Source of the DNA: an archaeon
GTDB taxonomy: Archaea; Iainarchaeota; Iainarchaeia; Iainarchaeales; 0-14-0-20-34-12
DNA: 30,415 nt
NCBI GenBank assembly: GCA_038046645.1
Contig: JBBSVU010000006.1
Span: 138,681 to 169,095 of the forward strand
Reading direction: 5' to 3'
Within the stretch, counting starts at the first letter, position 1; each line of letters opens with the position of its first letter. Below the pieces are notes generated by a model that did no database searches, was not told the DNA's origin, and saw nothing but the letters and a program-made list of their open reading frames with translations. Below, piece after piece: positions 11,666 through 18,793 of the stretch. The translations under genes were made by a program, and so were the position numbers.

Positions 11666-11712
11666 ATTTATCAAAACAATTAGCAATTATCCCCTTTTAA
11701 CCAAATCCTTTT

Positions 11713-14077: not shown

Positions 14078-14606
14078 ATTCCCATATCCGCAAAGTATAA
14101 TCTGCAGGAATACTGAAAAAAGAAGAAACATTCCCTGCTTTTATTTCGCAGGAAGGTTCGAGATTTTTGAGAATGCCTGCATGCATCGTTACCTCAGCCA
14201 GCTTTGCTTGCCAGAAATTAACCATATTCACACTTAGCAAGCTAGACAATGCTTCTTCAGTAATCTGCTTTTTTTCTTGCCCTATCTTGTCCAAAATATT
14301 GCAAGAAATACCTTCCTCCTTGCTAATTCCATTGAAATAATCCGCCAGGTTTTTTGCAATTTGGAATTTTACTGAAAAAGGATCGTTGTTCCCAAACTGA
14401 AGATTTTCTATCACAGTTTTCCGTATTATCTGCTCAACGTTTATTTCAATTTTTGTTCTTATGAAATCTGTTTTCTCGGCGCGCATTGCCTCTATTGCAG
14501 CTTTTTTTAATAAAGCGGTATCCTGAAATGATTGCTGCATCAAGGAAAAATAACTGCTGCAATATGCAATAACTAAAATTATTGTAAAGAACCCTTTTTT
14601 GTTCAT
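14061..14606 (-). CDS. Pilin-like protein with probable class III signal peptide
   Basis: MNKKG/FFTIILVIAY from ATG 14606; first of four overlapping or abutting genes. Confidence 0.65.
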   Translation of the reverse strand: MNKKGFFTIILVIAYCSSYFSLMQQSFQDTALLKKAAIEAMRAEKTDFIRTKIEINVEQIIRKTVIENLQFGNNDPFSVKFQIAKNLADYFNGISKEEGISCNILDKIGQEKKQITEEALSSLLSVNMVNFWQAKLAEVTMHAGILKNLEPSCEIKAGNVSSFFSIPADYTLRIWEYEWAD

Positions 14607-14691
14607 GGCAACCCTTAACAGCAAGGAATTGTTTGTGAAAAACAGTTAAAAGGTTAGCGTTAAACTTCCAAGTTGCTTTTTTTGCCAATAT

Positions 14692-15024
14692 CTAAATTAT
14701 AAAAAGAACAATAAGCAAAATAAAAGCAATTGTTGCAATTGTTCTGTTGTAATAAGCAACAAGCCCAAATACTGCTGGTGCGAGAATCATAAACGGTGCG
14801 AAATCAGGAAATCTTAATATTGATATTGCCCCGAATACTGCCCCTATTGTGAATAGGAAAAAAAGAAAAGCGATAAAAGTGCTTATCTTTTGCCCAATAT
14901 AATCCTGAATTTTGTTGAAGAGCTGATCTACTGTTTGTGCCCCAGCATTGTTGGAAGCCGCAGGAGCAGCATGTTCTGCATGCCCAGCATCTCCATGGCT
15001 ATCATGTCCATGCGTATCTGACAT
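14692..15024 (-). CDS. Small membrane protein with His-rich N-terminus
   Basis: MSDTHGHDSHGDAGHAEH followed by about 3 TM segments. Confidence 0.8.
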   Translation of the reverse strand: MSDTHGHDSHGDAGHAEHAAPAASNNAGAQTVDQLFNKIQDYIGQKISTFIAFLFFLFTIGAVFGAISILRFPDFAPFMILAPAVFGLVAYYNRTIATIAFILLIVLFII

Positions 15025-15044
15025 AATTTCATATTATTAAGGAA

Positions 15045-15215
15045 CTAATTTAAATGGATTGCTTCCTTCATCTCAAGGATAGTTAATAGTTCAAAGGTAA
15101 GGTTTCTTGAGATTTTGTCCCTGCCCATTATCAGCCTCTCAAATATGAGGTCCTTTCTTGCCCTTAATTCACTAATGCTCATTTCAAGCAAATCAAACTT
15201 ATTGGTCAATTTCAT
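15045..15215 (-). CDS. Hypothetical 56-aa protein; absent from the ORF track
   Basis: MKLTNKFDLLEMSISELRARKDLIFERLIMGRDKISRNLTFELLTILEMKEAIHLN*; SD-like GGTGG and TTTATAAA (15246-15253) upstream. Confidence 0.65.
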   Translation of the reverse strand: MKLTNKFDLLEMSISELRARKDLIFERLIMGRDKISRNLTFELLTILEMKEAIHLN

Positions 15216-15319
15216 TAAACCACCAAGTGATTAATAATTCAGCCCTTTATAAACAAGAGGAGAGAGTAGATTTCCCCTGAACTCCGTCTTTTCTTTTTCT
15301 CTTAGGAAGAGAAAAAAGA

Positions 15320-15427
15320 ACCAAGTAAAATTATTTGAATTTTACTGGTCCAACAAACTTTGTTTGTTGACCCTTTCAAACTGTTGTTTGAAAAGGTCCA
15401 ATAAAATTTTACAGAAATTTTATTTGG
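15320..15427. repeat. Four-hairpin cluster (a double-hairpin element with a second one nested inside)
   Basis: GTAAAATT/AATTTTAC, CAACAAAC/GTTTGTTG, TTTCAAAC/GTTTGAAA and ATAAAATTT/AAATTTTAT; GGTC repeated on both sides of the inner pair. Confidence 0.75.
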
Positions 15428-15434
15428 AAATATA

Positions 15435-15688
15435 GGCTGTCAAAAGAAAAAGAGAAAAGAAAATATGGGTTGCCGAAAGAAAAGAGAAAGAAAAAGTAGG
15501 TTACAACTAAAATCCAAAGGATTTTAGTGTACATTAAAATTCATAAGAATTTTAATTGTATTAAAAGAAAGAAAAGAAAGGCCCCCGGGTTCAAAGAAAA
15601 GAAAACAGATCTGTTGCCAAGAAAAAGAAATTAAACTATTTAGGTAAAGAAAGAGAAACTACAAGTTGCACCAAAAGAAAGAGATACA
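15435..15688 (+). repeat. Degenerate tandem array, consensus ~GGTTGCCAAAGAAAAGAGAAA, about 7 units
   Basis: Terminal GAAA/GATA of the last five units at 15576, 15601, 15627, 15655 and 15683 (25-28 bp period); two more units near 15435 and 15467. Confidence 0.65.
15502..15560. repeat. TA-flanked double-hairpin element A
   Basis: TACA-ACTAAAATCC-AAA-GGATTTTAGT-GTAC-ATTAAAATTC-ATAA-GAATTTTAAT-TGTA. Confidence 0.8.
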
Positions 15689-15717
15689 ATTATATTCATT
15701 TCAATCCTTTTCTTATA

Positions 15718-16845
15718 ATGCCTAATATTTTTTCAAGCAAGCCTTCTGAGAATCAGATATTCAAGGATGAGCGTTATTTATATCCTGAATTCATACCAGA
15801 AAAGCTTTGTTATAGGGATGTACAGTTGGATACGCTTGTAGGAATTCTAAATCCTGTCCTGAGCAACAAAAAAGTCCTGAATATATTTATCCATGGCCCT
15901 ACTGGCAGTGGCAAAACAGTGACTATGCGATTTGTTTTAAAAGAATTGGAGAGCTATTCTGACAGGGTAAAGAGCCTTTATTTAAATTGTTTTGAATTCA
16001 ATACAAGGCATTCAATTCTGTCACAAATTGCCACATTATTAAAGATACCCCTGCCAAGAAGGGGAATAGCAACTGATGAGGTTTATTCTAAAATATTGCA
16101 GCAGATGAAGAAAATAGACTTTACTCCGATAATATTCCTTGATGAATTTGATAGGTTGATTGATGCAAATGAAGCCTCTTCCCTGCTATATGATTTATTG
16201 CGCGGGGATTATGGGATGAAATCCTTTATTCTTGCTCTTATTTCAAACAAGAAAGAAATCATTGCTGAATTGGATGCGAGGGTAAAAAGTTCATTTATGT
16301 ATGAAGAGATAGAATTTCCTGCATATGAACCGCAGCAGATCAAGCAGCTTTTGAAGGAAAGGATTGAATATGCATTTCTGCCAAATGTGGTTGAGCCAGA
16401 TGTGATTGATGTAACTTCAGGCTTTTCTGCAAAGCATAATGGTGATGTAAGATTAGCCATTGAATCCCTGCTTAAGGCCGGAAGAAATGCAGAGAATGAT
16501 AATTCTAAAAAAGTAAAATTGGAACATTTGAGAAAAGCGATTGATTCAATACAGCAAAGGCTTCCCCTGAAACATATTCCCCTGCTTGATGGTAACGAAA
16601 AAGCAATTTTAAAAATTTTAGTTTCAAATGATGGCATTTATTCCGGGAACCTATTTAAATCATACCGTTCTTCAGTTAAAAATCCATTAACCCAGAGGGG
16701 ATTCAGGACAAAGCTAGATTCCTTGGAGAATAAGAATCTGATAAACCTTACGCTCAAAGAAAAAGGGCTAAGGGGAAAAACAAGGCTGGTAACCTTGAAT
16801 ATCCACAGGGATGAGATTGAAAAGCTGGTTAAAGGCGGCAAGTAG
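15718..16845 (+). CDS. cdc6: Orc1/Cdc6 replication initiator
   Basis: LYPEFIPEKLCYRD, GPTGSGKT, LYLNC, IIFLDEFD, FPAYEPQQIKQLLKERI, GDVRLAI and a C-terminal winged helix with GLRGKTR. Confidence 0.95.
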   Translation: MPNIFSSKPSENQIFKDERYLYPEFIPEKLCYRDVQLDTLVGILNPVLSNKKVLNIFIHGPTGSGKTVTMRFVLKELESYSDRVKSLYLNCFEFNTRHSILSQIATLLKIPLPRRGIATDEVYSKILQQMKKIDFTPIIFLDEFDRLIDANEASSLLYDLLRGDYGMKSFILALISNKKEIIAELDARVKSSFMYEEIEFPAYEPQQIKQLLKERIEYAFLPNVVEPDVIDVTSGFSAKHNGDVRLAIESLLKAGRNAENDNSKKVKLEHLRKAIDSIQQRLPLKHIPLLDGNEKAILKILVSNDGIYSGNLFKSYRSSVKNPLTQRGFRTKLDSLENKNLINLTLKEKGLRGKTRLVTLNIHRDEIEKLVKGGK

Positions 16846-16916
16846 GCCATTTTTTTGCATAAAAAGGATTTTATAGTATAACAGACTTAAATATAAAAAT
16901 AAATGCGGTCCTTTAC

Positions 16917-16972
16917 TACAACTTAAAGCATTGCTTTGAGTGTACAATTAAATCCAAAGGATTTAATTTGTA
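16917..16972. repeat. TA-flanked double-hairpin element B
   Basis: TACA-ACTTAAAGC-ATT-GCTTTGAGT-GTAC-AATTAAATCC-AAA-GGATTTAATT-TGTA; same architecture as element A. Confidence 0.8.
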
Positions 16973-16974
16973 TC

Positions 16975-17019
16975 TAGCAAAAGACAATAATAATTCCAAA
17001 ATTGAAGTATTTTGCTATA
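16975..17019. mobile_element. MITE/REP-like inverted-repeat unit
   Basis: TAGCAAAAGACA-N19-AGTATTTTGCTA-TA; same family as 12969 and 13015. Confidence 0.6.
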
Positions 17020-17043
17020 AATAAAAAAGATATCTGATGTATT

Positions 17044-17604
17044 ATGAAAAGGTTTCTTCCATTCCTATTTATTTTATTAATTATGCTGGCAGGCTGTTTG
17101 CAGCAGAATCCTGAAAAGATAACAGATTCTTTTGTACTCAATCCTTATTTAACCGATGCAAAGGTTTCTGAAACAATGCAATATGTTTCAAAGGGGCAAT
17201 TTGCTGAAGGCTTATTAAAAGTAAAGGCAACATATAATTCTGCCTATTTGTTGAATAATTATTCATATTATGAGCCTGATTCAAATGAGGATTATTTCTT
17301 TGAGCCGCAAGAAGGCTATTTTTACCTTGTTGTGAATGTTACCCTAAAGAACCTTAACGAATATGGGGTAATGACAGGTGCAAACGATTTTAGCGTTGTG
17401 GACAAGGAAGGTTACAGGTTTTACCCAAAATCATTCCATTCAGATAAGGCAATTATTATGATAGATTATATTGACCCGAATAAGGAAGCTAATGGAGAGA
17501 TGTTGTTTGAAATTCCTGATTTAAAGAAAAATCTGCTTTTGCAGTATAAATTAGCCTCAGGCTATTCCTGGCAGATTAATGTAAATTCATTAAATTATAA
17601 ATAA
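17044..17604 (+). CDS. DUF4352-like lipoprotein
   Basis: Lipobox LAGC; PQEGYFYLVVNVTLKN, FSVVDKEGYRF and IDPNKEANGEMLFEIP are typical of DUF4352 Ig-like domains. Confidence 0.8.
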   Translation: MKRFLPFLFILLIMLAGCLQQNPEKITDSFVLNPYLTDAKVSETMQYVSKGQFAEGLLKVKATYNSAYLLNNYSYYEPDSNEDYFFEPQEGYFYLVVNVTLKNLNEYGVMTGANDFSVVDKEGYRFYPKSFHSDKAIIMIDYIDPNKEANGEMLFEIPDLKKNLLLQYKLASGYSWQINVNSLNYK

Positions 17605-17605
17605 T

Positions 17606-18793
17606 TTAGCCTCTTAGCAATATTTTTACAATTGCATTATTTTTCAATTCACTTGTTTCCGAAATTTTTTGTTTTGTCCTGCAGTCTATTGCTCCAAGAT
17701 ATTTTTCAATAAAATCAGTATGAATCTTTCCTGCTAGGTCCTTTGAGTTGCTACCTTCCTTTATTAGATAAGCATCAGGAAGTATGTGGCCTTTTGCAGA
17801 AATCCATTTATTCTGGTCCTGCACAGGATAAACAACAATCAATTTTAGCAATTCAAATGCAGTTTTGTTTATTGCTTCCTGCACTCCGGTTGAACCATAT
17901 TGCTTGAGGATATTCTCCTTTATGAATTCAAGGGCTTTTTTCTGCTTCTCAGGCAGTTCTTTTTTAACAATAAAATCATTGCTCCCTGGAACATATTCAA
18001 TTAATCCTTCCTTTGCAGCCTTTCTTAACGCAAGTTCAGCTTCTGCCGAACATGCCACAAAAATATGGTCAGGAAACTGCTTTTTTAACCGTTCAAAATT
18101 TTCCTTTGAACCAGGCAAATCAATTTTGTTGCAAGCAATTATCATAGGTTTGCTGAATTTCCTTATTTCTGCACAGAATTCCAACATTTCATCTTCTGAC
18201 CATTTTTCCAAAACATCGCTAAAATTCAATTTTGTCAAGACATCCTTTATATTTTTTTCAGTTATTCCTAACCCAGTTAATTGCATAGCTAAAGCTTCTG
18301 AAGATTTCTTCTCTGCATCTGCCTTCCTTACAATTTTTATCCAATTATTTGTTAATATTCCTTTTATCCAGTAATCAATTTCTTTTTCCAAAAATAAAAC
18401 ATCCTCTGCAGGGTCATGCCCTCCCTTTATTGGGTTTCCTTCTGCATCAGTTGTCCCTGATATGTCTAAAACATGTATCAATGCATGTGCCTGCATCAAA
18501 TCATTCAAAAATTGATTTCCCAATCCGCGGCCTTTCCAAGCATCTTTCACTAAACCAGCAACATCAAGCAATTGTATTGGAATTAACCTTATTCCATTTA
18601 CGCATTTGCTGTTCTGCGGCTGGCATTCTTTTCCCAAATCCGAATGTGCACATCTTGCAGTGACGTATCCAATTCCCTGATTCGGTTTTATTGTCACAAA
18701 AGGCCTGTTGCCTATTTCAACATCAATCAATGTTGAGGCAGAGAAAAATGTTGATTTTCCAGAATTAGGCTTTCCAACGATTCCGATTTGCAT
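17606..18793 (-). CDS. ychF: YchF/Ola1 OBG-family ribosome-binding NTPase (archaeal type)
   Basis: GIVGKPNSGKST, PFVTIKPN, DVAGLV, GRGLGNQFL, NKID and a C-terminal TGS domain (LAGKIHTD). Confidence 0.95.
   Translation of the reverse strand: MQIGIVGKPNSGKSTFFSASTLIDVEIGNRPFVTIKPNQGIGYVTARCAHSDLGKECQPQNSKCVNGIRLIPIQLLDVAGLVKDAWKGRGLGNQFLNDLMQAHALIHVLDISGTTDAEGNPIKGGHDPAEDVLFLEKEIDYWIKGILTNNWIKIVRKADAEKKSSEALAMQLTGLGITEKNIKDVLTKLNFSDVLEKWSEDEMLEFCAEIRKFSKPMIIACNKIDLPGSKENFERLKKQFPDHIFVACSAEAELALRKAAKEGLIEYVPGSNDFIVKKELPEKQKKALEFIKENILKQYGSTGVQEAINKTAFELLKLIVVYPVQDQNKWISAKGHILPDAYLIKEGSNSKDLAGKIHTDFIEKYLGAIDCRTKQKISETSELKNNAIVKILLRG

Follow-up and report, generated by a model that had tools for sequence, protein, structure and literature searches.

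Small palindromic repeats are well studied in bacteria and, according to the literature searched, hardly described in archaea. The bacterial REP, BIME and REPIN sequences are imperfect palindromes of small size that lie outside genes, contain a bulge and end in a conserved tetranucleotide; they occur as singles, as oppositely oriented doublets and in mosaic arrays, and in which structure is conserved while sequence varies. The CGTC-tagged REPs likewise form palindromic repeat families and, in the accessible part of their description, appear to have no transposase of their own (Di Nocera et al., 2013; PMC3733652). Another class of small non-coding elements, the TA-duplicating MITEs of the IS630/Tc1-mariner type (Stowaway-like), have CA...TG ends, lie between genes and insert into one another; MITEEc1_IS630 is named in the accessible part of a large archaeal MITE census (PMC11602168).

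The double hairpins described here, which flank the cdc6 gene of one Iainarchaeota genome, resemble the bacterial repeats in all the features listed above. They differ in their archaeal host, in occupying 11-21 loci per genome instead of hundreds, and in their ends, which are TACA...TGTA, with the covarying forms TGCA, CGCA and GACC among relatives, in place of the GTAG (or CGTC) tag. Whereas a REPIN consists of two inverted copies of one REP, the two hairpins of the archaeal element differ from each other and each pairs with itself; moreover, a TA is duplicated at double-hairpin junctions, and no RAYT was found. Tag, composition and bacterial hosts separate the CGTC-tagged REPs from the present family, and TA duplication is not among the features given in the accessible part of that description (PMC3733652). 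With the MITEs the double hairpins have in common their small size, lack of coding sequence, TA duplication, CA...TG ends, intergenic position and mutual insertion. Of the properties by which MITEs are defined, target-site duplication was seen at six junctions and was missing from two GGTCC-type indels; in place of terminal inverted repeats of at least about 10 bp, the double hairpin has four complementary end bases (4-bp terminal repeats), its palindromes being internal. As for a related autonomous element with the same ends, neither DDE_3 nor DDE_Tnp_1 nor a gene-sized element with the ends of the carrier X described below was found, and no IS630-type transposase occurred in any of the 20 element-bearing genomes. 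The best reading is that of a REP/MITE-like structured repeat of archaea which lacks defining properties of both the REP/REPIN sequences and the MITEs. Like these, it is non-coding, intergenic, modular and defined by its structure, and near relatives differ by its gain and loss. Our literature search found no description of such elements for Iainarchaeota, although the archaeal census, of which a part was accessible, may list them (PMC11602168).

Fold of the two double hairpins beside cdc6

The window, a stretch of 30,415 nucleotides (C6:138681-169095), belongs to an Iainarchaeota (DPANN) genome of 1.17 Mb (G000) with 35% G+C, 89% complete and assembled into 25 contigs (C1-C25); positions without a contig name are those of the window. 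The cdc6/orc1 gene (15718-16845, plus strand; Pfam Cdc6_lid, AAA_22 and Cdc6_C) adjoins the elements without belonging to them, and its upstream spacer is long (693 bp) and rich in repeats. A scan of the whole window with Rfam 15 at gathering scores gave no match, and ARAGORN found no tRNA or tmRNA in it.

Double hairpin 1 (15502-15560) lies upstream of cdc6 and double hairpin 2 (16917-16972) downstream, neither being assigned to a strand. The sequence-only reading had described both as sharing a TACA-hairpin-GTAC-hairpin-TGTA frame with different yet self-complementary stems, and this was confirmed at these positions. When folded as single-stranded DNA, 15495-15570 formed two adjacent hairpins (-14.9 kcal/mol, z -6.6, equalled by none of 200 shuffles), and so did 16910-16980 (-11.9 kcal/mol, z -4.2, equalled by one of 200). 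The covariance model described below matched double hairpin 1 with 76.8 bits on the plus and 70.8 bits on the minus strand, and double hairpin 2 with 80.5 bits. Each hairpin is built from an A/T-rich stem of 9-11 bp, a loop of 3-6 bases, one bulged base and a 3-bp outer helix; the bulge is on the 5' side in hairpin 1 and on the 3' side in hairpin 2 of both elements. The central tetranucleotide is common to both outer helices, the adjoining hairpins having two central bases in common. The halves had also been proposed to be mirror images, which held for the bulge sides and for the two-fold symmetric frame, but the halves are two different hairpins and not inverted copies of one. A three-way junction closed by the first and last four bases was considered and rejected, the closing pair between first and last base being present in 65% of cells compared to at least 99% for the 3-bp outer helices.

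Tandem hairpin pairs were more frequent than expected by chance, with 36 in the genome versus 0, 0 and 0 in three block shuffles, and exact hairpins (stem of at least 8, loop of 3-6) numbered 415 versus 92-106. The outcome named beforehand as refuting the observation, no further copies and an equal frequency in shuffled DNA, was therefore not obtained. Near-identical copies of double hairpin 1 are present at C6:8147 and C6:27950, and four paralogs of double hairpin 2 at C1:33205, C10:49026, C14:44313 and C22:4401; the loop of its hairpin 2 reads AAA in the window and TTT in the four paralogs, with unchanged stems. No exact match to this hairpin was found in viral contigs. Contigs from independent runs spanned double hairpin 2 in place, and among the contigs of four DNA runs covering 14600-17700 no joint deleted either double hairpin; the joints that were seen fit paralogous repeat copies.

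A dispersed repeat family with covarying stems

Thirteen copies, ten from the window's own genome and three from a genome of the same genus (G001, whose Cdc6 is 82% identical to that of the window), were aligned under one structure and used to build covariance model R1. In this alignment 94.7% of cells pair, compensatory changes occur in 9 of 25 pairs, and the covariation score was reached by none of 500 shuffles. A genome scan for further copies, proposed along with the original observation, gave 39 matches with both strands counted, corresponding to 21 distinct loci: 11 with the TACA/GTAC/TGTA frame and 10 with a GGTCC-type frame. All 11 TACA-type copies sit between genes or at the last bases of a gene, in either orientation relative to the flanking genes and also between divergent genes.

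Across the order, the model matched in 20 of 121 sampled genomes (9 of the 51 that are at least 90% complete; 15 of 62 genera), and the distribution was patchy, matches being plentiful within the family of the window genome and, outside it, in a single genus of another family. The frame covaries in distant copies (TGCA/GCAC/TGTG, CGCA/GCGC/TGCG, TACG/GTGC/TGCA and GACC/GTCC/TGGA) while the architecture is kept. In the full set of 112 matches, in which one locus may count on both strands and the alignment is fitted to the model, 95.4% of cells pair versus 74.7% in shuffles, compensatory changes occur in 21 of 25 pairs, and the covariation score is 0.536 versus 0.142 in shuffles.

Orthologous copies were compared between the two species of the genus. 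The copy at C14:36953 differs at six bases: one loop accounts for four of them, the other loop for one and the bulge for the last; its approximately 50 paired bases show no difference, and the flanks have diverged. At C14:17113, beside tRNA-Ser, about 140 bases are the same except for loop-region bases, the neighbouring genes being approximately 80-86% identical. At C17:37800, G001 is without two of four hairpins, between repeated GTCC junctions. Frozen stems and free loops at orthologous sites suggest constraint, as judged from these alignments. Template switching during replication can yield loop flips and paired changes without selection, as stated in the accessible part of PMC8794818, so covariation alone is no proof of selection. 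The frozen stems are easier to reconcile with a function for the host than with an element that is purely selfish.

Probable insertion sites, carrier element X and the surroundings of cdc6

Several sites were found in both an empty and a filled state, and six junctions contained one TA when empty and two when filled. The spacer 3' of cdc6 measures about 58 bases in G001 versus 198 in the window genome; there, G001 reads GATTT-TA-AATAAC and the window genome GATTT-TA-(144 bases, TAG...CTA)-TA-AATAA. The empty site looked for at the orthologous cdc6 locus was thus present downstream of the gene. At C14:44313, G001 reads ATGC-TG-AAGATAAC versus ATGT-TA-(X plus double hairpin)-TA-AAGATAAC in the own genome, where the element provides the stop codon, the G001 gene being seven codons longer. 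In the reverse direction, G001 carries a 58-base CA...TG double hairpin between two TAs at C7:11540, versus one TA between near-identical flanks at C14:22605 of the own genome. A metagenome relative holds X and a double hairpin where the own genome has 39 bases (C10:46434-46472). Insertions were also found inside the elements: at C6:27865-27955, X lies in the 5' arm of hairpin 1 of a double hairpin, with TA or TAA duplicated, and in G001 and several metagenome contigs a further double hairpin is nested in the loop of one hairpin.

When 19 sites of G001 (in 18 stretches) were placed on the own genome, 10 were absent between mapped flanks, 3 were shared and 6 could not be placed. At one of the absent sites, beside tRNA-Val, the two genomes differ by a clean indel of 60 bases that has a one-base ambiguity and lacks the TA. 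Nor was a duplication seen for a GGTCC-type array of 104 bases in a metagenome relative, and both of these GGTCC-type array indels are free of a 2-bp duplication. The flanking TA may be partly structural, because it also pairs with the central TA, and precise loss by slippage between two TAs would give the same junction picture in such comparisons of two genomes. A rule of target choice by which the flanking dinucleotide is the complement of the central one was rejected, as it fails at the G001 junction C3:604.

Double hairpin 2 lies within a 144-bp element, here called carrier X (16874-17017, no strand assigned), which has TAG...CTA ends, is absent from the orthologous G001 site and is flanked by TA at 16872-16873 and 17018-17019. 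The basic repeat, about 95 bases long, is composed of two long-loop inverted repeats, and in the window copy double hairpin 2 is inserted between these two. The copy at C6:184490 is without a double hairpin (...TTTAC-TA-TCTAGC...), whereas five X copies contain one, and this comparison provides another of the six junctions with one TA versus two. The identity between paralogs is 87-89% over approximately 110-125 bp, and the ends of X are 11 bp long with 2 mismatches. Further X sites are C17:15969, C17:7979, C16:68299, C6:108147 and the above C6:184490; no gene-sized element between X-type ends was found in a search for one. In the 3' flank of cdc6, X split the TATA-like box of the next gene at its TA and rebuilt the box, and X looks like a promoter-targeting miniature element. 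An X end often lies about 25-35 bases upstream of a start codon. Elsewhere in the window, 11669-11710 (C6:150349-150390) is an empty site whose orthologous place in G001 (C37:916-1101) holds an X-like element and a double hairpin in 186 bases.

Upstream of cdc6, double hairpin 1 sits between polypurine units in a 178-bp block (15428-15605, no strand assigned) that blastn found in three genome copies of approximately 97% identity. Of the other two (C6:8105-8281 and C6:27783-28023), one precedes radA and one a small gene without assigned function. In G001, the distal part of the block upstream of radA, double hairpin included, is absent. An 88-residue protein without Pfam match is encoded downstream of one block copy (L113:1787-2050; C6:8386-8649), and the grouping of this gene with radA and cdc6 is probably a coincidence, since the block is missing at radA in G001. 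Just upstream of double hairpin 1 lies an array of four bulged hairpins with GGTCC-type junctions (15317-15427, no strand assigned; detected by folding and a model match of 31 bits), which counts as one of the ten GGTCC-type loci and has the double-hairpin architecture with different outer helices; neither paralogous block contains it. In contigs of three runs, 15316 is followed by two other letters and then by 15428; our reading of these joints is that they represent the paralogous block copies. The array is preceded by a polypyrimidine/polypurine hairpin (15294-15316, no strand assigned) that was identified by a hairpin search and belongs to a family found near several tRNA genes (one member immediately precedes tRNA-Glu, C1:80099) and within the long introns of tRNA genes. 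A module with a TATA-like box (15245-15284, minus strand), common to the left end of a TnpB insertion sequence, faces the minus-strand gene 14692-15024 and may act as its promoter.

Seven same-strand units, each (G)GTTGCC followed by a polypurine run, occupy 15437-15500 and 15563-15700. Such arrays also occur upstream of other genes (C17:37900-38080 and C6:28010-28060), G001 has two copies upstream of its cdc6, and double hairpins are often inserted within a unit of this kind.

The sequence-only reading had offered, as one possibility, a structural signal bracketing the initiator gene. Cdc6 orthologs were identified in 23 of 24 relatives, and none of these 23 loci carried a double hairpin within about 1.5 kb on each side (a few cut by contig ends; model E up to 1), which does not support a bracketing signal. 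An origin- or initiator-linked signal, i.e., a cruciform or Orc1/Cdc6-related element on both sides of cdc6, could account for two copies flanking the gene at its 693-bp, repeat-rich upstream spacer. It is nevertheless largely refuted and highly improbable, given the absence from all relatives' loci, congener included, the nineteen other genomic loci that carry the element beside unrelated genes, the same 178-bp block upstream of radA and of a small gene, and the lack of a GC-skew switch at cdc6. The skew along contig C6 showed no clear switch there and was uninformative. Archaeal origin recognition elements are conserved beside origin-linked cdc6 genes in relatives, a property that the double hairpins do not have. 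Both cdc6 copies are lineage-specific arrivals, recent local copies and not a cdc6-tied signal, and hairpins near cdc6 in one genome should not be counted as origin elements.

Candidate mobilising enzymes and explanations of the spread

The sequence-only reading had pointed to HUH-family RAYT nucleases and to IS630-like transposases, and neither link held. Profiles for Y1_Tnp (PF01797), DDE_3 (IS630 type) and DDE_Tnp_1 (IS4/5 type), whose controls gave matches in known genomes, found nothing in the own, 89%-complete genome. Across the order, Y1_Tnp occurred in 35 of 121 genomes without tracking the element (4 of 20 genomes with it versus 31 of 101 without), G001 having a fragment. DDE_3 occurred in 4 of the 121 genomes and in none of the 20 element-bearing ones. 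No known transposase family tracks the repeat across these 121 genomes. Of the types looked for, only TnpB elements were found in the own genome; five TnpB-type matches belong to an insertion sequence of about 1.3 kb that recurs, complete or in part, at roughly ten places, many of them at contig ends.

The suggestion that the elements form a small repeat family, defined by structure and showing signs of mobility, was borne out by the 21 loci, the empty sites in the congener, the TA duplications and the nested insertions. Taken jointly, the data are best explained, with a probability of roughly 0.68, by a dispersed Iainarchaeota family of double hairpins of about 60 bases, an insertion-competent non-coding DNA whose cdc6 copies are lineage-specific. 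Observed directly were the membership in one family, the architecture of paired bases, the lack of the element at the cdc6 loci of relatives and the sequences of the junctions. The course of events behind them may be pictured as follows. Copies would arrive at fresh intergenic sites with duplication of a TA, would insert into other small repeats and receive insertions from them, and could travel as passengers in the 144-bp carrier X. The upstream cdc6 copy would have arrived with the 178-bp block, triplicated in the own genome, and the downstream copy with carrier X, landing in the TA of the TATA-like box of the next gene. The spread itself might be a transposition in which some enzyme takes hairpin-forming DNA as its substrate. 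Copies that stay in place may owe this to their structure, for example by forming hairpins in RNA or single-stranded DNA that serve as punctuation between genes, in the manner of bacterial REP/BIME sequences.

An alternative is that the double hairpin is a structural module selected by the host, whose hairpins would work in RNA or single-stranded DNA, for example in 3'-end protection, termination or insulation or as a protein landing site, and which is copied by recombination or replication slippage and not by transposition. The invariant stems and changing loops of orthologous copies would agree with this, as would the position of all TACA-type copies outside genes or at a gene's last bases, the related hairpin arrays beside or inside tRNA genes, the changes of unit number between repeated GTCC junctions and the fact that no transposase correlates with the element. 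However, most orthologous sites of the congener lack the element, its orientation to the flanking genes varies, some copies stand between divergent genes, and its distribution across the order is patchy (20/121). Insertion events typically leave TA duplications and nested insertions, and we regard such a module as unlikely. Mobilisation of a REPIN or REP doublet by a RAYT-type Y1 (HUH) transposase, acting in trans or encoded in an unassembled part of the genome, appears quite improbable. Although bulged hairpins with a conserved terminal tetranucleotide resemble Y1 substrates, the 60-base indel without a duplicated dinucleotide is what Y1 transposition is expected to leave, Y1_Tnp is present in the order and as the G001 fragment, and IS200/IS605-family TnpB elements exist in the roughly ten full or partial copies mentioned above, the own genome has no Y1_Tnp, this enzyme and the element show no association across genomes, the GTAG tag is missing, the hairpins are not inverted copies of each other, and TA is duplicated at six junctions. 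Y1 transposition is not known to produce a TA duplication.

A bolder version of the dispersed, insertion-competent family, which we consider possible but doubtful, would be structure-coded mobile hairpins of DPANN archaea that spread by TA-targeted insertion without a known transposase family, through an undiscovered enzyme or the replication and repair machinery, and of which the host keeps copies as punctuation of its very short intergenic regions. Retention of this kind would explain the frozen stems and free loops at orthologous sites. The family offers clean before/after insertion sites, nested insertions and deep covariation in a genome of approximately 1.2 Mb without the usual transposases; through it a new mobilising activity could be discovered, and it could show how reduced genomes build and reshuffle intergenic signals.

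Other small repeats were encountered during this work. The TnpB-only (IS1341-like) insertion sequence of about 1.3 kb has copies at C25:9319-10623, C14:31935-33210 and the ends of C2, C6, C9, C10, C11, C16 and C20, which are approximately 85% alike. A small gene-less derivative lies at C1:61118-61382, and about 40 bases of the left end of the insertion sequence, with the TATA-like box, recur upstream of ordinary genes, 15245-15284 of the window included. A separate G+C-rich repeat of three hairpins has at least five copies (C8:13490-13600, C9:49669-49780, C16:98117-98230, C22:12962-13070 and C5:41194-41250), one of which directly adjoins the end of a TnpB element. Genome-wide, ARAGORN reported many tRNA genes with very long introns of 86-221 bases, for example at C5:50018-50313, C16:81751-81999, C14:17218-17435 and C17:37583-37766. 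The introns that were inspected contain polypyrimidine/polypurine hairpins and GGTTGCC-polypurine units, and the C16 intron also contains a GGTCC-type double hairpin.
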